A DNA stretch of 64,000 bases from Ostreococcus lucimarinus (lineage: Eukaryota), in assembly GCA_000092065.1 (NCBI GenBank), contig CP000590.1. One strand, given 5' to 3'. Position numbers and translations under genes: made by a program. The notes beneath the pieces are model-generated. The model was not told the origin of the DNA and did no database searches. It saw nothing but the letters and a program-made list of their open reading frames with translations. Positions 10,162 to 47,925 of this stretch are shown here, in pieces (position 1 is the first letter of the stretch; each line of letters opens with the position of its first letter).

Positions 10162-12606
10162 ATGGAGCGCGCGGTTCGCGAAGCGCACAGACGCGGGGGC
10201 GTAGAGCGCGCGACGTCGTCCGACCGCGGTGCCTCGCCGAGCGCCGCGCGCGCGGTGACGCCGGCGACGTTCTTCGCCCCGCTCATCGCGCGCGGCGGAT
10301 GGCGCTTCGTCGGACACGGTGCGCGAGCGCAGACGTACGGCGCGATGACGCTGGTGCCGCCGGGACACGAGAAACGGTTGAGAGGGAGTAATGCGCCGTG
10401 CATGACGCCGGGAGAGGAGTGGGAGGACGCGGACGACGAGGAGACGAGACGCGCGCTCAAGGCGTGCGGACTGCTCGTGGCGAAGAACGCCGCGCTGATG
10501 GATAAACCGAAAGCCGGACGGTCGAAACCTGCGCGCGTTGGGTTGCGAGACTACATCGCGCAAAATTTGAAGTGCATGATAAGCGCGATGGTGGCGATGC
10601 GGGTGAGCGCGACGGTGTATAGACATAAACGTTGGACGTTTGAGTGCTTCCGAGAGGTGTACCGAAAGCGCATGGAGTTGCGCAGGCGTCTCGAAAACTC
10701 ACGGGTCAGTGCGCTGGGGAAGGAGTCTCAGCGTTCGCTGACCACGCTTTTGCGTGCTTTCGACACGATGATGGAGCAAATGTGTGATCCTCGCGGGAAC
10801 ATTCGCGCGGCGTTTTACGACGGGATGGTGGCGTGTCCGTGGGACGTCGACTACGAATGGCAACAGAATGCAGCATTTCACGAAGACTTGTACAGCGTGC
10901 CGTACGCGACGAATGACGACCGCGATATGACACACTCATACGAAGTGCCAGATTTACCGGAGGCCTCACATAAGCGCGTGTTCGAAGGACAAGATTCGAT
11001 GTCGCAAGATTCGCGCGCGTCCACGGGCACGGACGACGCCGGGGTGATTGGCGGCAAGCGCAAGCAAGCCGATTATGCCGACGGTGTCACGGTGCGTCGG
11101 TGCCGAATCAAGCCTAGCATGGATGAGATTCCATCCATCGTGGCGTTAGAAATGGCCGCGGAGATTGACGTCGTTGCCGCCGCGACGGCACACTTCTTCG
11201 CCACGTGCGACTTATGCACCGATGGGCCAACCTTCCATGAGTATTTGACGCTGGTGACGTCAGCGTACGATTTTGCGTTCGCGACGGAAATGCAACTGTC
11301 ATTAGAGAACACGGTGATTCCTCAGATGCGCGAGAAGCAGTTTCCAGATGACGCCACTTTCCACTACACGCTTCTCGCGCAGTGCTACTCCTCGTCTTCT
11401 CAAGCGACGCAGTTACTCAAGCTACTCAGCAGCGATCCGAATCCGTTATTACACATCTCGTTGATGCAACGAATTGAAGGCGTATTCATCACGTCCAGAG
11501 ATGGACCCGACGATAAAGCAGACGCGAGGTTTGATCGTCTGATGCGGGACTACGCTGAAAGAGTGGCGTCGGCTCATCACAAACGACCGTGCTCCGTCAA
11601 TGGCTCGCATATGCAGTTGCACTATCCTCCGCCGATTCGCACGTGGATCGAAACGTGCAAATTATCGAATAGCCAACTTTACTCGCCCGCTGTGCCGAGT
11701 TTCGAGGCGCTAATCGAACTGCGTAGCTCATCGCCAAATGGTTGGGTGGAAATCTCGCGCGAAGGCACGGGCTATTGGACGGCCGTGATGACGAAGTGTG
11801 GCATACCCGCGCAGGCGGTGAACGTGCGCCTGGATATCAAGCGATACGGCCCAGAGGACGCGCGCGAACCTCCTCCTCCTCTTCCGCCGAGCTCAAGGCC
11901 GTTCGTGGGCATTCATTATGACTTACCTGACGTGTGCTCGGAATTTGGCAACTTTGGCTTGCTCCTCAACTGCATGCCTCGAGACGAAGATTTAGCAATT
12001 GAGTGTCTGAGAAATTACACTGGAAGCACAATCGCGTTAGTGGGCGAGTGGGTCGGCTCGACCGCTGGTTCGCGCTTCGTGCGTCGACTCGCAAAAAGGT
12101 TTGAGTTCGCGACCACCACAGTCTTGCCATGGATCGGCGATTCCGCGCACGAGCTCAGTATTTGGAAACGCCGAGCGGAAAAGTTGACGAAGCAGAAGCG
12201 TCGCGACGACGCGCTTTCTCGACGCGACGTGTTCCCCGCGGTGAAGAAATGCCAAGTCGCCGGCTGTCAATCGAAGTCGCGCACTATGTTCTGCTGTCGT
12301 CTCTGTCGCAGCGCCTTCGTGTGCTCCGAGCATCTGCACGCCTTGCATGATGAGTACGATCTCGCGCACGCCACCGAGCACTGCGTACGGCTCCTGCCGA
12401 CGCTCGATAGATTGCGAGGATACGAAGTCGAACTGGCGCACGGTGAAGGCAAGAAGCAAATGCGAAGCGAAACCATCATGGCGTTTAATCCATTCATCGC
12501 GGGTGTCGACTGCTGGATGGTGGACTATCGCAAAAGTTCAAATGACGTGTACGAAGACGTGCAAATAAGCGTGCCCCGAATCGAACGCGTGGAAAACTGG
12601 GAATGA
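10162..12606 (+). CDS. Hypothetical 814-aa protein with a C-terminal Cys/His-rich cluster (zinc-finger-like); low-GC gene
   Basis: A long single ORF starting at an ATG. The C-terminus reads KKCQVAGCQSKSRTMFCCRLCRSAFVCSEHLHALHDEYDLAHATEHC. No family is recognisable for the rest. The gene is about 52-55 % GC against about 70 % for its neighbours. Confidence 0.45.
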   Translation: MERAVREAHRRGGVERATSSDRGASPSAARAVTPATFFAPLIARGGWRFVGHGARAQTYGAMTLVPPGHEKRLRGSNAPCMTPGEEWEDADDEETRRALKACGLLVAKNAALMDKPKAGRSKPARVGLRDYIAQNLKCMISAMVAMRVSATVYRHKRWTFECFREVYRKRMELRRRLENSRVSALGKESQRSLTTLLRAFDTMMEQMCDPRGNIRAAFYDGMVACPWDVDYEWQQNAAFHEDLYSVPYATNDDRDMTHSYEVPDLPEASHKRVFEGQDSMSQDSRASTGTDDAGVIGGKRKQADYADGVTVRRCRIKPSMDEIPSIVALEMAAEIDVVAAATAHFFATCDLCTDGPTFHEYLTLVTSAYDFAFATEMQLSLENTVIPQMREKQFPDDATFHYTLLAQCYSSSSQATQLLKLLSSDPNPLLHISLMQRIEGVFITSRDGPDDKADARFDRLMRDYAERVASAHHKRPCSVNGSHMQLHYPPPIRTWIETCKLSNSQLYSPAVPSFEALIELRSSSPNGWVEISREGTGYWTAVMTKCGIPAQAVNVRLDIKRYGPEDAREPPPPLPPSSRPFVGIHYDLPDVCSEFGNFGLLLNCMPRDEDLAIECLRNYTGSTIALVGEWVGSTAGSRFVRRLAKRFEFATTTVLPWIGDSAHELSIWKRRAEKLTKQKRRDDALSRRDVFPAVKKCQVAGCQSKSRTMFCCRLCRSAFVCSEHLHALHDEYDLAHATEHCVRLLPTLDRLRGYEVELAHGEGKKQMRSETIMAFNPFIAGVDCWMVDYRKSSNDVYEDVQISVPRIERVENWE

Positions 12607-17490: not shown

Positions 17491-18345
17491 CTATTCCGGG
17501 TTGATGACCGCCTTGATCTCGTCGTACATCACGAGCACGAGCGCACCACCGACGCCACGAAGAACGTTGGAGAAGGCACCCTTGAAGAAGGCACCCATAC
17601 CTTCTTGCGCATAAATCTTGACGAAGGCGTCCACGGTGCCGCTGTACAACTTCTTGCCCGCGCCAGAGTTCATCATCAAGCGACGACGAACAGTGTCGAA
17701 GGGGTAGGAGAGAACACCAGCCGCGTTGGTAGCGACTTGGGCCACGATGAACTTGAAGATGAAGGAAGAATCCTTGGTGAGGAGCGCACCCTTACCGGTG
17801 TCGTAGAGACCGAAGTAAGAACCGCGGTACACGATGATACCTTGCACGGAGACGCCGAAGCCTTGGTAGAGCGCCATCGGGCCGGAGCGCCTGGCAATCT
17901 TGGACAAGCAGTCGACCAAACCGGTGAATTCACGGTCGTTAGCCTTGCCGACATCGGCAGCGAGACGCGTACGCGCAAAATCAAGCGGGTAAACAATCAA
18001 CAAAGAACCGGCACCGGCCAAACCGCCCGAAGCCATGTTGACGGCGAAAAACGGCCAAAACGCGTCCTTCGGCGAGTAGCTCGGGAACAAACCCTTGATG
18101 GTATCCTTGAACGCAAAGTTGAACGCTTGCGTCGGGAAGTAACGCACGATGTTCGCGGTGTTACCTCTCCAGAACGAACCGAAACCTTGCTCGGCGCTCA
18201 CGCGCGTGAAGCAGTTGACGATGCCCGTGTATCGCGGCACTTCGCCCGACATGATTCTCGGGTTCGCGTCTTGCGTTTGAATCAAAAGTTTCACGCGTTC
18301 GATCGGCGCCGTGGCCGTCTTCGCGATGGAACCAGACACTCCACC
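17491..18345 (-). CDS. ADP/ATP translocase (mitochondrial adenine nucleotide translocator), exon 2 of 2
   Basis: [25 protein letters not shown]...RRRLMMNSG is the ANT signature (RRRMMM). The ORF-track 'M' at 18339 is a GTG. The frame continues up to an AG acceptor at 18346-18347 (tttgatgcgcgcag|GGTGGAGTG). Confidence 0.85.
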
Positions 18346-33509: not shown

Positions 33510-34850
33510 ATGTCCGCCGCGCGCGCGCTCGCGTCGAGCGCGAACGCGAAGAATATTCAAACGTCCCGGAGGTCGTTATCATGCGCGCGCGAACGATCGC
33601 GCGCGGTGATGCGCGCGCGACGCGAACGCGCGGTCGAGAGCGGTGAAGTGTTGAATGTGAACGTCGTTGGGTCGGTGACGGGACGACGCGCGACGCGTGA
33701 GCGGCGTGGGGTGCGCGCGAGCGCGATGATGGGCGACGGGGACAGAGGCGAGCGCGGCGAGCGGGACGACGGCGAGGAGGACGAGGAGGTTGGAGGTCGG
33801 CGACGGCGACGAAGGGCGAGTCGAGGGCTTAATAAAGATGCGTCGGCGCGCGATGAGAAAAAAGAAGGGAAGAAGAAGACGCAGACGATGGCGGCGGAGT
33901 CCAAGGGCGAAGCCGAGACGGAGGCGCCTAGCGACGCCGAAGGGGGGTCGACGGCGGATTTCATCGAAAATGTAGTCGTGGATGCTCGCGAAGAGAGCTT
34001 TGCGTTGAAGAAGAAACGCATGGAATTGATTATCGAAGAGAAAGAGTGGGATTTAGAGTCACCGACGTCGAGCGAGGATGAGAAAATGATCAAGCTTGTG
34101 GAGTACGTTAATGCGGTGGAGGCGTTCAAGGAGTTGTGCTCGAGCGAGGTGCCGAACACCGTGGGCGATTTGCTCGGGCAGTACGTGACTGTGTATCACT
34201 TGGATTGTGATTCTCCAGGGTACGACGAGGCGCTCGCGTTTCTCGGAATCGATCCGGACGAGGACGAAGATGAGGACGAGCGCGACATGGAGGCCTGGCG
34301 CCGCGCGACAGCAAGCTTTGACTCTGGGTCCATGGACGAGGACGACGACTCTGATGACGAAGACGAAGACGATGAAGGCGAATACACGATTGAGATTTCG
34401 TACGGTCGCGGGGACGATTTCGATCCGATCAAAGGCTTGCACTGCGCGCAAGACGTCGAAGGCAACTGGCGTTGGCTCGAGGATGATTTAGGGAGAACTC
34501 TGTCAATGAAACCATTCGGAGAATTCACGCCCAAGCTCATGTCGGTCGAGTACATGCTCAAGGTTGGTTTGAACGTCAACTCACTTCACGAAGAAGTCGA
34601 TCCACTCGAGCTTCTTAACTTTTCAGGGTGCAAGTCGTGGGAGGACACGCTGAGAGCGAGTCAAGAGGCGACAGCGGCATTGCGCCAACTCGAAGACGAT
34701 GGATGGAAGGTGGATACTCGGAGCTGGTGCAACGAGCAAGATCATCTCATCGTGGTGAAGGAGCTCGTGCCATTACGCACGATGTCATTCGTCGACGGGT
34801 CAGTCACGGAGGACGAAAACGAAGAGGGACAGGAGGACGAAGATCGTTAA
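33510..34850 (+). CDS. Hypothetical acidic protein (D/E-rich low complexity; no recognised domain)
   Basis: Single ORF starting at an ATG. The C-terminal half is lower in GC and contains conserved-looking blocks (GLHCAQDVEGNWRWLEDDLG..., WCNEQDHLIVVKELVP). Confidence 0.4.
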   Translation: MSAARALASSANAKNIQTSRRSLSCARERSRAVMRARRERAVESGEVLNVNVVGSVTGRRATRERRGVRASAMMGDGDRGERGERDDGEEDEEVGGRRRRRRASRGLNKDASARDEKKEGKKKTQTMAAESKGEAETEAPSDAEGGSTADFIENVVVDAREESFALKKKRMELIIEEKEWDLESPTSSEDEKMIKLVEYVNAVEAFKELCSSEVPNTVGDLLGQYVTVYHLDCDSPGYDEALAFLGIDPDEDEDEDERDMEAWRRATASFDSGSMDEDDDSDDEDEDDEGEYTIEISYGRGDDFDPIKGLHCAQDVEGNWRWLEDDLGRTLSMKPFGEFTPKLMSVEYMLKVGLNVNSLHEEVDPLELLNFSGCKSWEDTLRASQEATAALRQLEDDGWKVDTRSWCNEQDHLIVVKELVPLRTMSFVDGSVTEDENEEGQEDEDR

Positions 34851-34955
34851 ACAAGTATCACCGCACGCAAGCACGCGCCGCACACGCATGTACCCAACTA
34901 TGTTGTAACGTAACTGAAGCGGCTGTATCAAATCTAAAATTACATTTTCAGTACA

Positions 34956-37900
34956 CTAGTACATAGCGTCTCGCTGAGACACCTTGAGGAGTACGAACGC
35001 CAACGCGAGATAGCACGACATGATGGTGAACAAAACCGTGATGTCGTGGGAAAATACCTCGTGCGTCGAGCCAAAACTAAAGAACTTCAGTACCTCTTTG
35101 CCATCCACGGGGACTTTGATGGGACCTTCTTGCGGAGGCGTATCGGTCGGTTTAGAATCGATTAGCTTCGGCGTAAAGTAAAATGTTCCAGCGTCGAGGA
35201 ACTCGTTTATCAAGAGCGCCTCGAATGCGTAGTTGACGAAGGATAAATCCTCGAGCCATGTCACCGCGACCGATCCGCCCGAATGAGGATCTTGCTTGTT
35301 CAGTAAGAATCCGCCGCACAGAATGGATATCAACAAGGCAAGAAGACCAATGACATTTGCGGAGGCGTTACTCGGACTGACGATACCGACACACATGCAC
35401 AGCGCCGACGCGGCGACATTGGTCATGATCAAAATCAACGCACAGCACAGTGCATTCGTCAGGTTGGCGTGCAAACCTACCATCCAATAGGTAATGAATG
35501 CAAACAATAGGGGAGGAGTGACGCGTAAAATCACGACATCGAAGAGGACGACGGCTGTGAAGTACGCATTGGTGCCGTACACACCGCTCGCTCGCTCGCG
35601 TCTGAACAGAATTTGATCCTCTTTCCATATCGGCAAAGAGGAGAGCGACATGAGCGTCAGATACAGAATGATGAAGAATAAACTGCCCATCCTATTTTGT
35701 ATCCCGCCCGTGTCTCGTCCACTGTTCCAAAAAATCAAGCCGAGTGCGATTGACATGCCTGCCGTAGACGCAAAGTGCAACATCAACAAAAACGGATGAC
35801 GAAAGGTCACTCTTGCGAGCCGTTGCCAAAGCAAGCACACTTGCTTGACGTACGGACTAACGTATTTCGGTACGATCAACGGTGGTTCATCGGAATCTTC
35901 GTATCGAATCGTCAAGGTGTCCGCGATGAGCAACGCGCTTTCGGCGACCTCGCTCTCGGTAAACGCTTGCACCATGCGCTTTACGTCCGAGCGGGGACTC
36001 TTCAGCACGACGTCCAGCATGTAGTCCGCGATGTGCAAGTCCGCGGAAGGCAAGCTGACGAACGACATGGAGTTGAAGTGCGCTGAAGCGAGTGCAGACG
36101 GACCAGAGTAAACAACGCTCCCGTCGCCACTCAGTACCAGGACGCGATCAAGCAGTCGGAAAATGTCTGGTCGTGGCTGGTGAATGCTCAGCAATACCGT
36201 CGTGCCCATCGCGCCGAGACCGGACAGGATATCCACTACCTTGGCGGCGTTCGTACTGTCCAGCCCAGTCGTGGGCTCGTCCAGGAACATAATGCCAGGG
36301 CTCATCAAAAGCTCCGTGGCGATGCTCACACGGCGCTTTTCTCCACCGGACAAGCCGCGCTGGAACTGGTCACCAATGAACGAGTCAGCGAGCTTCTCAA
36401 TGCCGAGAATCTGCATCGTCGAGTCCACGCAACGACAAATATCATCTAAAGGCGTTTCGGCTGGAAGCCGAAGTTTGGCGTGAAACAACAAGTGCTCGTA
36501 TACAGTTGCGTTACCTGGCAAAACATCGTCTTGGGTAACGTATCCGCTCAGGCGACGAATCTGAGATGACACCATGGGTTGTCCGTTTACACGAATGTCG
36601 CCGCGAATAACATGCGTGGATGGTGCTCGCCCTGCAAGAATATCCAACAGCGTCGTTTTCCCAGCACCCGATGGTCCAAGCATGGCGAATAAATCAGCAT
36701 GTTGCTCATGACAGGTGATCGAACCATCGCGCGACGTTCCTATGGAGTTCACTGGGCCAGCCACGCCCGTGACGTTCTTCAACACCCGGCGCCCAGACTT
36801 CAACGTGCACACTACGTCAACCCATGACAAGATGTACGGCTCGCGCGCATTGCCACTCTCGCTTAAAAGTGAAAGTGATAGATCTTCTTCATCAAGAGCG
36901 CTCGAAAACAATCCATTGCTTTCGGTATTGTCTAATACGAGACTGTCGGTTGGTTGATGTGCAAATCGCTCGCGCGCATCGGCAAAGTCATCCGCAACAT
37001 CTACTATTTGGGACGTGCCACTATTATTGTAACCATCCACCCTTCCATCGAACGAATCTGAGTCTTGCGCGGAGGTTTTTAGGAAGACGTAACAACCAAA
37101 TGCAAAGAGGAAGCCTTCGGCGATCAGAAACGTGACATCCCAGGGCGCGAGATACGGATGAAACCCGAACGTGAAAAGCACTTTCTCGCCGGGGACTGGA
37201 ATTTGCTTTGGAAGCTTCGGTCCGCTGGTGCCACTGGCGTTGCTCCAGCTTTGAGTAAGCGTGAATGTCAATGGATTGTCGACAAACTCGTTGACGACGA
37301 GCGCCTCGTAGCCGTGACTTATGAAACTCAAGTCGGCGATCCAGCGTGCATACCACGGAATGTGGTCTTTGTTCAGCAAGAACCCCCCAAAAAGAATCGC
37401 GAGTAAAAAGCACAGCGAAGCAACCATGTTCGCCGCAGATACGTTCCGATTCGCGGCGCCGACCGCCATGCACAAACACGTAGCGACGATGTTCGTCAGG
37501 ATCAACACGAAGACAAATTTCAACAGATTCAACTGACCACCCTCATTCAAACCGATCATACCGTACGAGAAGAATCCGAAGAAAAACGGAGGCAGGACAC
37601 GCATTGGTAGCAGATCGAATAATAGCATGCTCACGAAATATGCATCTGCGCTGTATACTCGACTCGCTCTTTCGCTCTTGAAGAGTAAACGATCCTCCTT
37701 CCAAACCGGCAGCGAAGACAATGACATTAATGTCAAAAAGAGCAAGATGAAGAATAAACTGCCCATCCTATTTTGGATACCTCCTTGATTTGTACCACTA
37801 TGCCAGAAAATCCCACCGACACCGCAAGCGACGACGAAAGACGAAATGAAGTGCACGTAAATCAAAAATGGATGCCGGTACATTTGCCGGAGCAACCGTC

Positions 37901-40151
37901 CACAAAGAAGCTTGACTTGCGTTCTAAACGTCGCTGTGTGCTTCTTATCGACGTCGTCGATTGCATCGCCGTCAATAGAGAGCAAGCTTGGGGAGACGCT
38001 GAATCTTTGTGCGCACAGCTCCGTGTGCGTAACTTTATTTGTAGCCTCTATGTCGCTCTCGGCAAACGCTTGCACCATGCGCTTTACGTCCGAGCGGGGA
38101 CTCTTCAGCACGACGTCCAGCATGTAGTCCGCGATGTGCAAGTCCGCGGAAGGCAAGCTGACGAACGACATGGAGTTGAAGTGCGCTGAAGCGAGTGCAG
38201 ACGGACCAGAGTAAACAACGCTCCCGTCGCCACTCAGTACCAGGACGCGATCAAGCAGTCGGAAAATGTCTGGTCGTGGCTGGTGAATGCTCAGCAATAC
38301 CGTCGTGCCCATCGCGCCGAGACCGGACAGGATATCCACTACCTTGGCGGCGTTCGTACTGTCCAGCCCAGTCGTGGGCTCGTCCAGGAACATAATGCCA
38401 GGGCTCATCAAAAGCTCCGTGGCGATGCTCACACGGCGCTTTTCTCCACCGGACAAGCCGCGCTGGAACTGGTCACCAATGAACGAGTCAGCGAGCTTCT
38501 CGATGCCGAGAATCTGCATTGTCGCTCGAACACGCTTGCGAATTGTACTTTGCCTTGTTTCGGCTGGAAGCCGAAGTTTGGCGTGAAACAACAAGTGCTC
38601 GTATACAGTCGCCGTTCCGGGCAACACGTCCTCGTCGATGACATATCCGCTTACCGCTCGCATATCTTCCACTGACGCGACTTTACCATTCATGAATATT
38701 TCACCAGCGCTGTCGTATACGTTGGAAGACAGTCGCCCGGACAGTCGATCGAGCAAGGTGGTTTTTCCAGCGCCGGAAGGTCCCATGAGCGCGCACATGC
38801 CGCCACGAACGTCGTCCATCCTTCCAGCCATGCCTGAAACGTCATTCAAAATACGTTTTCTCATGCCCTTCACCTCTACATACAGCCCACGCCACGTCAA
38901 TATCGTCGATGGTCCATCACGCGGTTGCATTGTCGATTCGAATCGCCGTACAGCTTCGATAGCTCCTCCCACCACGTCTTCGGTGTCTGCGTTCATGTCA
39001 ACGTCGTGTTCAAAGTACCGAAGACCGGCCTCAACTTTGACGTACGCCCAAGCGGCGCTCACTAAAACTAAAACAATCAATACCATCACGGCTCTTGTGA
39101 TCGTGTCCCCGGTCCAATACACAGGAGGGTCGAAATGGATCGGGCACGACCCGTCGCTGTCGACCATCTCGTACACGCAGCTCCCAGTGTGACACGTCAG
39201 CGCAAGCGTCGGAATGACGCCACTTTGTGTCCAATAACACACATTCGACCCGTCTTCACGAGTGCTATTCACACCGCACCAAAATTTCATCCCCTTGTTG
39301 CCTGGCGTCGACAGCGGATTGCAGGGATGTTGCCAGTACTTTTGCCCGGGGGCGTCTGGAATGCTCCCGCACCCAAAAGCGTTCCGCCCCGGGCACGGCT
39401 CCACCCAAGTTGGCGGACACGACACCACGCCCGCGCTACAATCATACACTGCACACGTCTCCGTCGCAGGCAACGGGTCTATGCACGACGTGATCGTTAA
39501 CGAACACTGCGTAAAGTTCCCGTCCCACACCGCTGGAGCCGCGTACTTGTACTTATCCGGCACATCCAAATTTTGATCCTGTCGCGGCATCCCCGCGTAC
39601 TCCACGACTTCAATTTTGTATTTCGACCGTCCATTCGACACCGTGCCCGGTAATACTCGCATATCGATCCTCGTCTTCGGCTGGAACTTGCAAAACGAAT
39701 CTGTCTTCGCGTCGCCGCCGCATCCGCACGAAAACGTCTTCCCGCCCGCTCCTCCCTCTACGTCCCCGATCGGTCTCAGCTCCTCTTCCGTCGGCGTCCA
39801 GCACTTCGACGTACACGCGCTCGCGCTTCTCAGGACGCCATTCACCTTTCTCTGTCCACACACCGATCGCGTCTGACACGCGTCGCACGTCGTCCCGCGC
39901 CAACCGTCGCCGCAACCAAGATTCGGATCCCCTTTCACCGCGCACGACGCGCAGTTCTCGGGATGCGGCGACGACGTTGCGATCGGCATCGTGCTTCGAG
40001 CGCACGGTGGCGACGTCGTCGCGATGGCGTTCGCGCACTGCGCGTGGGAGTCGGCTATCGAGTTGGCTTTTGCGCAGATTACCAGCGTCAATGCGGCGAC
40101 GAACGCGACGCGCACGACGCGCCGGCGCGCATTTCCGAGCGATGCGCGCAT
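34956..40151 (-). CDS. Full-size ABCG-type ABC transporter ((NBD-TMD)x2) with an N-terminal signal peptide, a Cys-rich ectodomain of about 350 aa and an extra TM helix
   Basis: The signal peptide is MRASLGNARRRVVRVAFVAALTLVICAKANS. The next 350 aa carry more than 40 Cys. A TM helix (AVMVLIVLVLVSAAWAYV) follows, then NBD1 (GPSGAGKTTLLDRLSGR...LSGGEKRRVSIATELL...MFLDEPTTGLD), TMD1, NBD2 (GPSGAGKTTLLDILAGR... with the same signature) and TMD2. ABCG family assignment comes from the NBD-before-TMD order and the VSGG-type signature. Confidence 0.8.
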   Translation of the reverse strand: MRASLGNARRRVVRVAFVAALTLVICAKANSIADSHAQCANAIATTSPPCARSTMPIATSSPHPENCASCAVKGDPNLGCGDGWRGTTCDACQTRSVCGQRKVNGVLRSASACTSKCWTPTEEELRPIGDVEGGAGGKTFSCGCGGDAKTDSFCKFQPKTRIDMRVLPGTVSNGRSKYKIEVVEYAGMPRQDQNLDVPDKYKYAAPAVWDGNFTQCSLTITSCIDPLPATETCAVYDCSAGVVSCPPTWVEPCPGRNAFGCGSIPDAPGQKYWQHPCNPLSTPGNKGMKFWCGVNSTREDGSNVCYWTQSGVIPTLALTCHTGSCVYEMVDSDGSCPIHFDPPVYWTGDTITRAVMVLIVLVLVSAAWAYVKVEAGLRYFEHDVDMNADTEDVVGGAIEAVRRFESTMQPRDGPSTILTWRGLYVEVKGMRKRILNDVSGMAGRMDDVRGGMCALMGPSGAGKTTLLDRLSGRLSSNVYDSAGEIFMNGKVASVEDMRAVSGYVIDEDVLPGTATVYEHLLFHAKLRLPAETRQSTIRKRVRATMQILGIEKLADSFIGDQFQRGLSGGEKRRVSIATELLMSPGIMFLDEPTTGLDSTNAAKVVDILSGLGAMGTTVLLSIHQPRPDIFRLLDRVLVLSGDGSVVYSGPSALASAHFNSMSFVSLPSADLHIADYMLDVVLKSPRSDVKRMVQAFAESDIEATNKVTHTELCAQRFSVSPSLLSIDGDAIDDVDKKHTATFRTQVKLLCGRLLRQMYRHPFLIYVHFISSFVVACGVGGIFWHSGTNQGGIQNRMGSLFFILLFLTLMSLSSLPVWKEDRLLFKSERASRVYSADAYFVSMLLFDLLPMRVLPPFFFGFFSYGMIGLNEGGQLNLLKFVFVLILTNIVATCLCMAVGAANRNVSAANMVASLCFLLAILFGGFLLNKDHIPWYARWIADLSFISHGYEALVVNEFVDNPLTFTLTQSWSNASGTSGPKLPKQIPVPGEKVLFTFGFHPYLAPWDVTFLIAEGFLFAFGCYVFLKTSAQDSDSFDGRVDGYNNSGTSQIVDVADDFADARERFAHQPTDSLVLDNTESNGLFSSALDEEDLSLSLLSESGNAREPYILSWVDVVCTLKSGRRVLKNVTGVAGPVNSIGTSRDGSITCHEQHADLFAMLGPSGAGKTTLLDILAGRAPSTHVIRGDIRVNGQPMVSSQIRRLSGYVTQDDVLPGNATVYEHLLFHAKLRLPAETPLDDICRCVDSTMQILGIEKLADSFIGDQFQRGLSGGEKRRVSIATELLMSPGIMFLDEPTTGLDSTNAAKVVDILSGLGAMGTTVLLSIHQPRPDIFRLLDRVLVLSGDGSVVYSGPSALASAHFNSMSFVSLPSADLHIADYMLDVVLKSPRSDVKRMVQAFTESEVAESALLIADTLTIRYEDSDEPPLIVPKYVSPYVKQVCLLWQRLARVTFRHPFLLMLHFASTAGMSIALGLIFWNSGRDTGGIQNRMGSLFFIILYLTLMSLSSLPIWKEDQILFRRERASGVYGTNAYFTAVVLFDVVILRVTPPLLFAFITYWMVGLHANLTNALCCALILIMTNVAASALCMCVGIVSPSNASANVIGLLALLISILCGGFLLNKQDPHSGGSVAVTWLEDLSFVNYAFEALLINEFLDAGTFYFTPKLIDSKPTDTPPQEGPIKVPVDGKEVLKFFSFGSTHEVFSHDITVLFTIMSCYLALAFVLLKVSQRDAMY
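35951..36418. repeat. Intragenic near-identical tract, copy 2 (in NBD2 of the ABCG gene), matching 38054-38521
   Basis: About 468 bp with 1-2 mismatches at a constant offset of 2103 bp. The ORF-track pairs 36092..36292 / 38195..38395 and 36184.. / 38287.. are identical antisense read-throughs of this tract. Confidence 0.8.
38054..38521. repeat. Intragenic near-identical tract, copy 1 (in NBD1 of the ABCG gene)
   Basis: See the 35951-36418 tract. The flanking regions of the two halves are clearly diverged at protein level (GRMDDVRGGMCALMGPSGAGK versus HEQHADLFAMLGPSGAGK). Confidence 0.8.
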
Positions 40152-40313: not shown

Positions 40314-41861
40314 TCAGTCGAAGCTGCACCCTTTGATGCAAGTTCTTATGGCTTTCGCTTTTTCTCTCTCCACGAGCACGACTTTCTCTTGAACCATGTA
40401 AGCCTTCGCTTGACCTCCGCCGTCGGGCATGACCCACATGGGTAACTGCACGGTCGGCACGTCTTGAAGTTTCGCATCTTCGGCTTTGACCCATTTGTAT
40501 TTCGGAGTGAAATCGGGCTTGCCTCCGATGTAGTGGCGAGTGCCGTGTTTGACGGTGGCGGCTTCGTACGAATCGACGACGCGGCGAAAGGTCTGGAGCG
40601 AACCGAAGTGGTGCTCGATGGCTGCGTTCAGCGCGGCGTCGGCGTAGGCGTACAGCGCGGCGTCGCGAGTGGTGACATTCTTGATGGTCACTTCGAGCGC
40701 TTCTTTGTCTACCTTATCCACGTTAGTGCCGGTGTTGGAGAAGACGTACCGCAAATCCCGCACGCCAGCTATTTTCCCTACGACGTGCAGAAATTCGTTG
40801 AAACGTTCGGTAGTCCCGACAACATCAAACTGCCCCACGAGCGCCTCGACCCGCGCCCACTTTTCATCGCTCACCGTGATGCAGTCTTTCGTCCACTTAT
40901 CGTTTTTCTCATACGTCGGCGCGCGCAAGTGATGGACGCACTCCTCCCACAACAGCTCGCGCGTTTGCATATCCTGTTTCGTCGCCGCCCACTCGTGCAA
41001 GCTACGCCCCCACACGTTCTTCGTTGACTCCCCCGCTTGTTCTTTCTTTATTTCTTCCTCCATGCCATCGTGCACGTAATATGCGTAGTAACTCGCGTAC
41101 TGATCAACGGGTTTCCGCACCAAGTAGGACGTCGTCACCGAACACGAATCCGCAAACTCTTCCTTCATCGCCAACACATCCTCAAACACCACATTCGCGA
41201 AGTTCTGCGCGTTCCAACTATTTGGATAGTGCCCTCTCACCTCCACGAGCGTTCTCGGTGGCACTGCACGCGTGCCATTCACGTACGCTCTCGCCGCGTC
41301 CGTCCACGCCGTCTTCAGCGCCTCCCACTCTTCCCGCGAAGCGCCGTACGGTATCGGATACTCCCACTCACCGAGCACCGTCTGCCTTTCGAACCAAAAC
41401 CGCACCGTCGTCCCACCCGTTTTACTGACGTGTCTAAATAAGTGCAGCGCGCACGGCTCATCGCTCTTCGCCGTCGCCGTCGCCGTCGTCGTCGCGTTCG
41501 AAGTCGTCGTCGCCGCCGTCGCGTCCCGCTCGCCGACGCTCGCCGACGCCGTCTCCAACTCTCGCGCCGTCTCCACCGATCCATCCGCGCTCGTCGCGCC
41601 GGCGTCATCGCGCGCGTTCGACGACTCGTGAATGCTCTGTTCGGCGACGTCGAGCGCGACCGGGGCGCGCCAGACGAGCTCTGGTTTGGCTACGAAGACG
41701 GTTGAAGTAATCTGCGTTCGCGAGCTCGGCTCGACCGAGTCGCCGTCATCGAACGATTGCCGCTCGGCGCGCCAGCGGTGCGCGGATACGACGACGAGAA
41801 CGGCCAGGACGAGCGCGGCCGCGGCGCGAAAGGCGGTGAACCATCGCGCGCTAGCGCTCAT
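40314..41861 (-). CDS. Type II membrane sulfotransferase-like protein (Sulfotransfer_2-like 5'-PSB / 3'-PB motifs)
   Basis: An N-terminal TM anchor (WFTAFRAAAALVLAVLVVVSAHRW), then LHLFRHVSKTGGTTVRFWF (a 5'-PSB-like K-x-G-T-T) and YLVRKPVDQYASYYAY (a 3'-PB-like R-x-P-x-x-x-x-x-S-x-Y). The first ATG is at 41861. Confidence 0.5.
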   Translation of the reverse strand: MSASARWFTAFRAAAALVLAVLVVVSAHRWRAERQSFDDGDSVEPSSRTQITSTVFVAKPELVWRAPVALDVAEQSIHESSNARDDAGATSADGSVETARELETASASVGERDATAATTTSNATTTATATAKSDEPCALHLFRHVSKTGGTTVRFWFERQTVLGEWEYPIPYGASREEWEALKTAWTDAARAYVNGTRAVPPRTLVEVRGHYPNSWNAQNFANVVFEDVLAMKEEFADSCSVTTSYLVRKPVDQYASYYAYYVHDGMEEEIKKEQAGESTKNVWGRSLHEWAATKQDMQTRELLWEECVHHLRAPTYEKNDKWTKDCITVSDEKWARVEALVGQFDVVGTTERFNEFLHVVGKIAGVRDLRYVFSNTGTNVDKVDKEALEVTIKNVTTRDAALYAYADAALNAAIEHHFGSLQTFRRVVDSYEAATVKHGTRHYIGGKPDFTPKYKWVKAEDAKLQDVPTVQLPMWVMPDGGGQAKAYMVQEKVVLVEREKAKAIRTCIKGCSFD

Positions 41862-41922
41862 GGCGCGTTGCGCTGTGAGGCGCTCGCGCGCGGCGACTAC
41901 GACTACGTTACACCGAGGAGCG

Positions 41923-44091
41923 CTAGTCGCTCCAATCGGAATCGTCAGAATCACCACCGAGGTGTGATCCAGACAGGTCTAATTGCGCGGCTATGGCGGA
42001 GTTGAGCTCGCCGAGACCTTTGTTCGGTGGCGGTGGCGGTGGCGGTTTCTTTGGCGGCGAAATCGAGCGCGGCGGCGGCGGCGGCTTGGGCGGTTTGCCG
42101 ACGCTCGGGGGTGGCGACGGAGGAATGTTACGCGAGGATGGCGGCGGTGGTGGCGTTGGCGCTGGAGGGGGTGTTGTACCGCGCGAGGGCGTCGGCGAAG
42201 TCTCCGAATCAGAGATCACCGAGGACGTCGCGGATGTGAAATCGCTCGCGCTCGCTTGTTTCTTGCGAAGAGAAACGCCAGCTTGGATCGACGCCATGAG
42301 CATAGCGTGCGGATCGTTTGGATTCGGTGGATTTGGTGGTGATGGTGCAGCGTTCTCGTCCGGTGGCGCGTGCCCGCCAGGCGGTGGTGGAGGGGGAGGA
42401 GGTGGTGGAGGGGGAGGCGGAGGGGGAGCGCTCGGCGCGCTCGGCGCGCTCGCCTGCATCGAAGCAGGAGGCATCGCCACAGGGGCAGAACTTCCAGGGC
42501 GTGGAGGCACAGGACGTCCTTCTGCTAAGGCCTGGCGCGCCGTTGCTTTCCATTGTTTGTAAATAGCTCTCTCCTCCTTCGCCGCGCGGCGTCTCGCGCG
42601 ATCCGCCCGACGCTCCTCACGCTCGATGCGCGCACGTTCCATCGTCGTCAGCGGTCTCGATGGTGTTTCCGCCGCGAGTTCAGCGGCTTGCCACAGGGCA
42701 GTGTTTTCGCCGTTCGCGTTTGACGCAGGAGCGTCGCGATTAGAGGCATCGTCATCACGAAGTAACATGCCCCACATCTCTGCTTCCATCTTCGCCAAGT
42801 CCGCGCTCGCCCTGGCGAACGCTCGCAAGCCGCGCGTGAGCGCATTTCCTGACAACCGGTGAAATCTAGGAAGCTCGTCGCGCATGCGCTCGACTATCAT
42901 GTCGTATCGCTCCTTTGCCTCTTTCATCAAAGCCTCGGCGGCGAGACAATCCGGATCCACCGTGGCGAGCGCTCTGCCTTTTTGGCGAACCACCTCGTCA
43001 TACCGATCGCACGTGATTTCGTAGTGTAAGAGCGTTTCTGCACGATCTTCAAACGTCTCTCGCACCGCACCGAGCATCCGCAAGCAATCCTTGAACTCCC
43101 GCTTGAGCGCTTTCATGTGTTCAACGACTTGCAGCTCGTGCGCGTCCTCGCCAGTCAACGATTCTGCGCAATCTGCAAATGCACCGAGCACGGTTCCCAA
43201 CGACACGCACTTACTTCTACGCGCCAAAGGTCGACCCCAACCTGACTCACACTCTCCCATCGCGCGCGCGCTCTTTCCTAGTTCCAACAGCCTCGTCGCG
43301 TTCACACGCTGTTCCAACTGTTTCATGTACTCTCTCGCGCTCTCTCGAAAGCCCACAATCTGGTCCTCAATCTTCTTCGTGTACTCAATCACTTGCAAAT
43401 ATTGCGGGTCTTCATCCTTGAGCACGCTCGATATCGTCCGCGTGCTGCCGAACATCTGCCCGAACCACGAGGGATTCGCCGCGCTCGGGCTCGACGTTGA
43501 AGCGCCGCCGCCGACCGCCGCCCCTAACATCCGCCGCGCCATCGCATCGACGAACGCCCCTCGATCATTCTCCGTGAGAAACATCAACAGCGCTGTGGAG
43601 TTATACAGCATCGGGTGCTCGCCACATCGCGTCAAAAACTGCACGAGATGTTGCCTTCGCTTTTCGCACGCGTCGCCATCCAACGCCGTCGTCCGCGCGC
43701 GTTCGCCCTCCAATTCCGGCGCCTTCGGCAGCGGCGGGATCACCGCTCCCGGATACGACTCCCGCAATCGCGTTCGCAGCGTGACAAAGTCTCCGTACCG
43801 CCGCTGGACGTCGAACGTGGCGTGTCCATCGCGTAATTCACTTCGGCATTGCAAAATGTATTCTCTCGCCGTCGCGCGCGTTTTGACGCTGAACGCCACG
43901 TGCGCGTCTCGCGGATCGCTCGCGACGAGCGTAGGTGCGGTGAGTTGTATCTTCACCGCCCCGGGTTGTATCTTCTTGTCCCGGCGCGACGACGACGCGC
44001 GCGTGGACGCGACGGATGGCGCCATCGCGCGCGCGAATTTGAAGTCGGTTGCGCGCGGGGGCGGGCGCGGGGGCGTCTCCGCGAAACGCAT
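41923..44091 (-). CDS. Sorting nexin with PX and BAR domains, carrying a C-terminal poly-proline tract and a WH2-like motif
   Basis: PX domain: RRYGDFVTLRTRLRESYPGAVIPPLPKAP. A long helical BAR-like region follows. The C-terminus reads PPPPPPPPPPPPPPPPGGHAPP...DPHAMLMASIQAGVSLRKKQ, a WH2 consensus (LxxxIxxGxxLKK). An alternative ATG lies at 44025. Confidence 0.65.
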   Translation of the reverse strand: MRFAETPPRPPPRATDFKFARAMAPSVASTRASSSRRDKKIQPGAVKIQLTAPTLVASDPRDAHVAFSVKTRATAREYILQCRSELRDGHATFDVQRRYGDFVTLRTRLRESYPGAVIPPLPKAPELEGERARTTALDGDACEKRRQHLVQFLTRCGEHPMLYNSTALLMFLTENDRGAFVDAMARRMLGAAVGGGASTSSPSAANPSWFGQMFGSTRTISSVLKDEDPQYLQVIEYTKKIEDQIVGFRESAREYMKQLEQRVNATRLLELGKSARAMGECESGWGRPLARRSKCVSLGTVLGAFADCAESLTGEDAHELQVVEHMKALKREFKDCLRMLGAVRETFEDRAETLLHYEITCDRYDEVVRQKGRALATVDPDCLAAEALMKEAKERYDMIVERMRDELPRFHRLSGNALTRGLRAFARASADLAKMEAEMWGMLLRDDDASNRDAPASNANGENTALWQAAELAAETPSRPLTTMERARIEREERRADRARRRAAKEERAIYKQWKATARQALAEGRPVPPRPGSSAPVAMPPASMQASAPSAPSAPPPPPPPPPPPPPPPPGGHAPPDENAAPSPPNPPNPNDPHAMLMASIQAGVSLRKKQASASDFTSATSSVISDSETSPTPSRGTTPPPAPTPPPPPSSRNIPPSPPPSVGKPPKPPPPPRSISPPKKPPPPPPPNKGLGELNSAIAAQLDLSGSHLGGDSDDSDWSD

Positions 44092-47743: not shown

Positions 47744-47754
47744 CGATGGATGCG

Positions 47755-47925
47755 CCGCCGACGACGAAATCACACGCGCGCGGCGCCGACGACGAAATCA
47801 CAAATCACACGCGCGCGGCGCCGACGACGAAATCACACGCGCGCGGCGCCGACGACGAAATCACAAATCACACGCGCGCGGCGCCGACGACGAAATCACA
47901 CGCGCGCGGCGCCGACGACGCGAAT
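47755..47925. repeat. Minisatellite: about 5 tandem copies of a 31/38-bp unit CGCCGACGACGAAATCACA(AATCACA)CGCGCGCGG in a divergent promoter
   Basis: Read directly from the sequence. The flanking features are (GATC)4 at 47711-47728 and the palindrome CCATCGATGG. It lies between the Tic40-like start (47743, minus strand) and the phosphatase start (48151, plus strand), and is translated spuriously in ORF 47686... Confidence 0.7.

Follow-up and report, generated by a model that had tools for sequence, protein, structure and literature searches.

Evidence for recurrent gene conversion between the two halves of an ABCG-type transporter gene in Ostreococcus lucimarinus and related green algae

How can two halves of one gene that are otherwise diverged to saturation share a segment of nearly identical DNA? 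This question is raised by an ABCG-type transporter gene in a stretch of 64,000 nucleotides (nt) from Ostreococcus lucimarinus (contig CP000590.1), here called the window. The gene lies at 34956-40151 on the minus strand and appears in the list of open reading frames (ORFs) as a single ORF of 1731 amino acids (aa) without introns. The first-pass annotation of the window attributed the shared segment to recent gene conversion within the gene, and named a very recent partial duplication and a collapsed repeat in the assembly as alternatives. The analysis described here indicates that intragenic gene conversion that is recurrent, ongoing and long-lived very probably keeps the 3' two-thirds of both segments encoding the nucleotide-binding domains (NBDs) nearly identical.

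The predicted gene product is a full-size ABCG-type transporter. It was assigned as such because Pfam finds ABC_tran followed by ABC2_membrane twice, which is the order NBD then transmembrane domain (TMD), and because the closest solved structures are those of Cdr1, Pdr5 and ABCG2 (E values of 1e-76 to 7e-80); other solved matches are ABCG25, ABCG1 and ABCG5/8. Both features that define the ABCG subfamily, an NBD ahead of the TMD and a TMD of the ABC-2 type, are present. The complete domain order is a signal-like helix, a Cys-rich ectodomain, a transmembrane (TM) helix, NBD1, TMD1, NBD2 and TMD2. Both halves have canonical motifs (GPSGAGKTT, LSGGE, a DEPT Walker B with its Glu, and an SIHQP H-loop), and the degenerate, non-catalytic nucleotide-binding site of PDR-type transporters was found in neither half. 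The sole motif deviation noted is the missing Q-loop Gln in NBD1 of Ostreococcus.

The near-identical tract in the window

When the gene was compared with itself at a fixed offset of 2103 nt, the segments 35950-36421 and 38053-38524 (472 nt each) differed at three positions only (35960, 36399 and 36417), against a background identity of 25% over the rest of the gene. The first segment is the copy in half 2 (NBD2, minus strand, aa 1244-1402) and the second is the copy in half 1 (NBD1, minus strand, aa 543-701). Between them, 153 aa are exactly identical (544-696 and 1245-1397). The offset had been correctly recognized in the first-pass annotation, but its count of one or two differences was too low, as the interval 35951-36418 to which it referred contains all three mismatches. 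In an alignment to Cdr1 and Pdr5, the tract spans the end of the helical subdomain, the signature motif LSGGE, Walker B, the D-loop, the H-loop and the C-terminal strands and helices of the NBD. On the gene strand it begins 23 codons upstream of the signature motif and ends in the C-terminal NBD helices and linker, about 45 aa ahead of the Pfam ABC2_membrane start at aa 744. Coverage of the signature, Walker B and the H-loop was thus described correctly at the outset, but the tract stops short of the start of the TMD, which it had been said to reach.

Divergence between the halves was estimated by the method of Nei and Gojobori at synonymous (pS) and non-synonymous (pN) sites. In the main tract pS was 0.017 and pN 0.006; the corresponding values were 0.77 and 0.37 for the 5' part of the NBD, and 0.76 and 0.37 for the TMD. 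At residues shared by both halves, codons were identical in 153 of 155 cases in the tract versus 27-58% in the flanks. This difference in synonymous divergence (0.017 against 0.76-0.77), a comparison suggested with the original annotation, bears out the statement made there that the halves are diverged overall. Uniformly low divergence over both halves is not what the gene displays, its flanks being saturated.

The pattern of identity is a mosaic of main tract, diverged patch and second block. On the gene strand, the main tract is bounded at its 5' side by a patch of 32 nt, 23 of which differ between the halves (36422-36453, minus strand, aa 1234-1243, PLDDICRCVD, in half 2; 38525-38556, minus strand, RQSTIRKRVR, in half 1). 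Beyond the patch lies a short second block, an exact match of 53 nt between 36454-36506 in half 2 (the TVYEHLLFHAKLRLP region) and 38557-38609 in half 1, both on the minus strand, with a pS of 0.17 over aa 513-532. Further upstream on the gene strand the identity decays gradually. An exact run of 30 nt in TMD2 (35670-35699, minus strand, NRMGSLFFI) matches 37746-37775 in TMD1 at an offset of 2076 and may represent a micro-conversion. A second homogenized spot was also observed in the first TM helices (GGIQNRMGSLFF...) of the Micromonas-like locus L006, at aa 880-919 and 1799-1838. There it covers 40 aa, with 35 of 40 codons identical; its counterpart in the window is just the 30-nt exact run.

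Taken alone, the pattern in the window matches one recent event private to this genome, either a single conversion or a partial duplication of the NBD segment that happened very recently. The evidence that bears on this explanation comes from other algae.

Comparison with related algae and strains

An exact internal repeat of its own, at a matching position in the NBD, was seen in each full-length orthologue that the protein search recovered. The longest such repeat is 97-165 aa in the Ostreococcus orthologues, 180 aa in Bathycoccus prasinos, 86 aa in Micromonas pusilla CCMP1545, 244 aa in Prasinoderma coloniale, 81 aa in Volvox carteri and V. africanus, and 63 aa in Bryopsis. DNA was obtained for eight orthologues, and five Ostreococcus species, including that of the window, were compared at the DNA level. 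The nucleotide-identical tract measured 428-487 nt in the four other Ostreococcus species, 558 nt in Bathycoccus, 250 and 239 nt at two Micromonas-like loci (67% GC) and 742 nt at a Prasinoderma-like locus.

In the five Ostreococcus species, tract pS within a gene was 0-0.034, compared with 0.62-0.77 between species; flank values were 0.61-0.89. Third codon positions of the core differed by 0-8% within genes and by 31-82% between species, and the nucleotide distance of the core was 0-4% within genes versus 16-46% between species. In a tree of the core the two copies cluster by species, whereas in a tree of the TMDs they cluster by half within Mamiellophyceae. Likewise, TMD1 of other Mamiellophyceae matches TMD1 of the window at 65-91% and TMD2 of the window at 47-51%, with the reverse for TMD2. 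Because the TMDs group by half and the core by species, these sequences point to an internal duplication older than the divergence of Ostreococcus, Bathycoccus and Micromonas, and to concerted evolution of the NBD core since then. Trees based on the NBD would falsely infer a separate recent duplication in each species.

The edges of the tract vary among species. Measured from the SGGE codon, the 5' edge lies between -17 and -389 nt and the 3' edge between +220 and +413 nt. In the window and at loci L001, L003 and L004 the two halves have nearly the same short upstream block, written in codons peculiar to each species. L002 lacks this likeness; on the gene strand its main tract starts sooner, at a distance from the SGGE codon that is 16-18 nt greater. 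The diverged 32-nt patch is kept different between the halves in all five Ostreococcus species and is homogenized in Bathycoccus. In view of these variable edges, and of the separate tract and codons found in every Mamiellophyceae orthologue examined, an explanation by one recent event confined to this genome is very improbable. A very recent partial duplication in particular, as first suggested, is excluded by flanks that are anciently diverged and orthologous half by half across genera; nothing here was newly duplicated. The first-pass description of the conversion as recent holds for its latest round; it does not hold for a single event, as the process is seen in every one of these orthologues.

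Purifying selection alone, without any recombination and whether its target is the protein or an element in the nucleotide sequence (an RNA structure, for instance), draws on the extreme conservation of the protein core, of which 78 aa are almost invariant across Ostreococcus, with a tract pN of 0.02-0.09 between Ostreococcus species. As a full explanation we find it hardly credible. Between species the tract is saturated at synonymous sites, yet within genes these sites are identical, the identity enters an intron in Volvox, and the same amino acids outside the tract are coded differently in the two halves.

Two strains of the species of the window, represented by contigs L012 and L013 from independent metagenome assemblies and about 0.6-0.7% divergent, were compared with it. 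Both contain the two-copy form with the tract, which the first-pass annotation had proposed to look for in sister strains. At nt 1803 and 3906 of the gene (38349 and 36246 in the window), which are homologous sites, the window has C in both copies and L012 and L013 have T in both copies. The chance of a parallel independent change there is about 0.005, a rough estimate for one site, and this polymorphism common to both copies lends modest support to conversion. Two of the three mismatches in the window (1650/3753 and 2089/4192) are found in the window strain only and not in L012 or L013, and one of these two shifts the protein-level 3' edge from 153 to 156 aa.

These assemblies also bear on the explanation that the repeat was wrongly homogenized or mis-joined during assembly or polishing. 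The repeat does mislead assemblers, as the collapsed and looped gene models described below illustrate. Even so, we give an artefact in the window next to no credence: the two-copy form recurs in the independent assemblies of the same species, the tract is present in the reference genomes of O. tauri (two strains), B. prasinos, M. pusilla, V. carteri and V. africanus as well as in the P. coloniale protein set and an MMETSP transcriptome, and the window keeps three copy-specific differences. The collapsed repeat proposed at first would moreover leave a single copy, whereas the reference genomes hold two.

The following features expected of concerted evolution are found here: similarity within genomes exceeds that between species, the identity extends to synonymous and non-coding sites, the duplication is older (within Mamiellophyceae), the edges are mosaic and differ by lineage, and a polymorphism is shared by both copies. 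Non-allelic conversion within the gene, as originally proposed, is upheld by the synonymous identity of the tract, its saturated flanks, its sharp mosaic edges and the one polymorphism present in both copies. GC content at third codon positions (GC3) is above that of the rest of the gene in the tract of all nine species, by 3-12 points, the window values being 0.74 and 0.62. This is compatible with GC-biased conversion but no proof of it. Separately, the ABCG gene region at 34001-38000 is the GC minimum of the window (0.52 versus about 0.61 overall).

Transporters outside this group of orthologues served as controls. In 49 other two-NBD ABCG hits (plant PDRs, fungi, Mesostigma, Ectocarpus and Capsaspora), at most 17 consecutive residues were identical between halves, and none of the PDR-type hits was internally homogenized. 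When a library of 1.84 billion representative proteins was scanned with aa 1-701 as the query, 94 of 101 two-NBD proteins among the best hits had fewer than 20 consecutive identical residues between halves. The exceptions were close family members (59-327 aa) and a more distant ABCG, P0331 (176 aa). P0331 is a metagenome two-NBD ABCG of 1589 aa with another N-terminus and is 39% identical to the query in the NBD region. From its 176-aa repeat, homogenization of NBD1 and NBD2 may extend beyond the green-algal clade.

Several points weigh against conversion as stated above or limit its reach. Caulerpa, Stichococcus, Ostreobium and the protein P0283 have no tract, and both of their NBDs are canonical. 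The shared polymorphism is a single site. The signal of half-by-half orthology is flat outside Mamiellophyceae, and a single shared duplication is therefore not claimed for Volvox, Bryopsis and Prasinoderma. Instead of biased conversion, codon bias in so conserved a segment might account for the excess of GC3. We infer the recombination pathway, the choice of template and the rate, and the data are compatible both with conversion continuous since the common ancestor and with conversion repeatedly restarted.

Family members without a tract also speak to the role of selection. Conversion might supply alleles from which selection favors identical NBD cores, for example two equivalent ATP sites in a pseudo-symmetric dimer; the tract would then be upheld adaptively and not as a mechanical by-product. 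That the pattern persists across many lineages and its 3' edge varies rather little, and that both ATP sites are canonical (Walker A, signature, Walker B Glu and H-loop), would suit such selection for sameness, and a similar idea was proposed for long-lived mammalian conversion pairs (PMC2720389). We regard it as unlikely nevertheless. Tract length varies from 239 to 742 nt, and identity at synonymous and intron positions requires no selection at the protein level. In addition, the outgroup two-NBD ABCGs of Ectocarpus and Mesostigma, like the proteins of Caulerpa and Stichococcus and P0283, are canonical in both NBDs without a tract. Homogenization is therefore not required for function, and an adaptive reading becomes less likely for that reason. 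The possibility that loss of the tract is tied to loss of one catalytic site was not supported, as the motifs are canonical in both halves.

Tract edges, collapsed gene models and a proposed mechanism

Structural differences between the halves seem to limit how far the tract extends. In the intron-rich gene of Volvox carteri (GL378333.1, L014), 10198-10468 and 17952-18222 are 97% identical over 271 nt. The identity already covers 30 nt or more of the intron that precedes the exon, and it ends exactly at the end of the half-2 exon, while the half-1 exon runs on, and this tract edge appears to be set by the presence or absence of an intron. In Ostreococcus, sequence beyond the 3' edge is conserved among species for each half and unrelated between halves. 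At the other side, the Q-loop (about 38630-38645, minus strand, in the window; aa 503-508 versus 1204-1209) was observed to be half-specific and just outside the homogenized region. In all Ostreococcus species examined the Q-loop of NBD1 has no Gln (IDEDV, VAEDI, TADDV or IAEDV) and that of NBD2 reads TQDDV; in Bathycoccus, in which the tract reaches further 5', TQDDV is found in both halves. Because of the stop at the Volvox exon end, the half-specific 3' sequence and the difference between the NBD1 and NBD2 Q-loops, the edges fit conversion tracts that are barred from heterologous, separately constrained flanks.

Ostreococcus cells are haploid. In the mechanism that we propose, a break or a stalled replication fork in one tract would be repaired by homologous recombination with the other tract, 2.1 kilobases (kb) away on the same chromatid or on the sister, as template and with a non-crossover outcome. 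Strong purifying selection on the catalytic core would keep the copies similar enough for further recombination, and the process would then be self-sustaining. Extension of the heteroduplex would be halted by mismatch-triggered rejection at diverged or indel-containing flanks, namely the Q-loop side and the patch upstream and the half-specific linker downstream, with the flanks of each half presumably under their own constraint. The raised GC3 of the tract would fit GC-biased repair. Products of crossover or annealing would lose exactly 701 codons in frame and would presumably be removed by selection. Under a simple two-copy expectation, in which divergence between copies is approximately the mutation rate divided by the conversion rate (mu/c), the synonymous divergence of 0.01-0.03 suggests, as a rough inference, that the per-site conversion rate is about 30-100 times the mutation rate.

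Gene models corresponding to such a loss are present in the databases. Eight proteins of 1030 aa from the species of the window consist of the N-domain, the pre-tract part of NBD1, the tract and TMD2. One of these, P0010, is 99.8% identical to the window protein in the N-domain, 100% in pre-tract NBD1 and 99.3% in TMD2. The unit dropped in the 1030-aa forms corresponds to 36422-38524 (minus strand), that is, 2103 nt or 701 codons, in frame. Whether by a crossover, by single-strand annealing or through a shortcut taken by an assembler, joining the tracts would remove this unit and leave a 1030-aa NBD1/TMD2 chimera. The contigs that encode P0010 (L009:3001-6093, L010:3001-6093 and L011:916-4008) come from metagenome assemblies, two of them with k-mer assembler names; all three change register inside the tract and share private single-nucleotide polymorphisms (SNPs). 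Collapsed forms occur on several haplotypes that match full-length ones (P0014 is of the P0133 type, P0013 resembles P0130, and P0007-10 resemble P0129), and equivalent collapsed models were found in three other Ostreococcus species (P0015-P0017). The shared private SNPs raised the possibility that the 1030-aa form is one real deletion allele, which is disfavored by the several haplotype backgrounds. For the same reason the 1030-aa models are likely to be assembler shortcuts through the repeat. The reverse of such a collapse is apparently seen in P0280, a Bathycoccus-like protein of 1914 aa with an exact internal repeat of 729 aa at a half-to-half offset of 810 aa, for which an assembler apparently passed through the repeat loop twice. 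Assembly and annotation are misled accordingly: in at least four Ostreococcus species the in-frame collapsed gene of 1030 aa appears on metagenome contigs built from short reads.

An adaptive upkeep of the tract may also be imagined: the tract would let the locus switch, by in-frame recombination, from the full-size transporter to a half-transporter of 1030 aa (NBD1/TMD2) and back, or selection itself would demand identical NBD cores. We consider this improbable. If switching did take place, the collapsed forms in several Ostreococcus species would in part be real structural alleles; if the adaptive reading were true, the locus would be an instance of a use of intragenic recombination in a transporter that is hundreds of millions of years old.

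The transporter, its surroundings and known systems

Outside the repeat, about 350 aa precede NBD1. This part of the gene (39012-40151, minus strand) encodes the N-terminal signal-like helix, the Cys-rich and beta-rich ectodomain (aa ~30-345) and a single TM helix (aa 350-377). The PDR-specific domains ABC_trans_N (PF14510), PDR_assoc (PF08370) and PDR_CDR (PF06422) are not among the 24 Pfam hits of the protein, and the precomputed Pfam annotations of close orthologues lack them too; PDR hits from plants and fungi do contain them. One protein, P0001, is 99% identical to the transporter, and a protein of 99% identity recurs in marine metagenomes. Other Ostreococcus orthologues, including O. tauri CEF99370.1 and one from the transcriptome of Ostreococcus sp. 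RCC789, are 75-80% identical.

The window is compact and gene-dense, with 61% GC, and no tRNAs were found in its 64 kb. The neighbors of the ABCG gene, at 33510-34850 (plus strand) and 40314-41957 (minus strand), keep their position in related contigs, and ORFs of 446 and 547 aa flank the ABCG gene in L009 as well. Neither the 446-aa nor the 547-aa neighbor protein has a significant Pfam family; the 446-aa protein is very acidic, with long D/E runs. Elsewhere in the window, a tandem repeat with a 63-nt unit (47752-47920, 2.7 copies, 99% identity) lies inside or beside long ORFs, and long CGA/CGT trinucleotide runs occur at 15.0-16.4 kb, 19.06 kb and 30.2 kb.

The picoalgae concerned have small haploid genomes, and both population samples and mutation-accumulation lines are available for them. 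The locus is an unusually clean natural case of concerted evolution limited to part of a two-copy internal duplication, with sharp edges and in many algal lineages, and could be used for measuring conversion rate, tract length and GC bias. The tract also marks a clade of green-algal full-size ABCG transporters with two canonical ATP sites and a Cys-rich ectodomain. A search of the full-text literature found no description of NBD1/NBD2 conversion in ABCG transporters or in green algae; such conversion is unmentioned in Xiong et al. 2015, and a paper on Tetrahymena ABC genes describes concerted evolution for tandem genes only. The kind of process is well known, and its instance in the ABCG halves of green algae appears to be new.

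Among solved transporters, the algal protein resembles ABCG2, Pdr5 and Cdr1 in its reverse NBD-TMD order and its ABC2_membrane TMD. ABCG2 is a half-transporter, and in Pdr5 and Cdr1 one of the ATP sites is degenerate and PDR-specific domains are present. Unlike these, the algal protein has two canonical sites, an additional N-terminal ectodomain with a TM helix, and no PDR-specific Pfam domains.

Conversion or unusual likeness has been mentioned for other ABC transporters. Judging by its title, a 2017 paper by Lamping and colleagues (Genetics 205:1619) deals with PDR-type ABCG paralogues of Candida krusei that reportedly underwent ectopic conversion with one another; that case would be between paralogous genes, whereas the algal case is between the halves of one gene. 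The two NBDs of the trypanosomatid ABCA transporters TcABC1 and LtrABC1.1 are reportedly unusually alike at the nucleotide level. If so, they would be a further case of NBD1/NBD2 homogenization within a single full-size ABC gene, in a different subfamily (ABCA) and a different eukaryotic supergroup; a review of trypanosome ABC transporters makes no mention of NBD identity.

Homogenization of internal repeats is reported for spidroin repeats (PMC3933166), for the WD repeats of Podospora hnwd genes (PMC2873952) and for domains of modular polyketide synthases (PKS) and non-ribosomal peptide synthetases (NRPS) (PMC4256081). Coding repeats within one gene or cluster are reported to evolve in concert by recombination there, as they do here, and they belong to multi-copy tandem or modular arrays with changes in copy number. 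The algal ABCG gene differs from such arrays in having exactly two copies that are homogenized only in part, its TMDs, linkers and 5' NBD segments being diverged to saturation.

A closer parallel may be drawn with the mammalian gene pairs BMP8A/B, DDX19A/B and TUBG1/2, which conversion has kept homogenized for more than 100 million years (Carson & Scherer 2009, PMC2720389). As in these pairs, the duplication is older than the lineages compared, the identity includes synonymous and non-coding sites, and homogenization is long-lasting for no clear reason. The mammalian partners, however, are two separate genes, whereas the algal partners belong to a single ORF, as its two halves, and lie in direct orientation at a distance of 2.1 kb, so that a crossover between them would truncate the algal gene itself.

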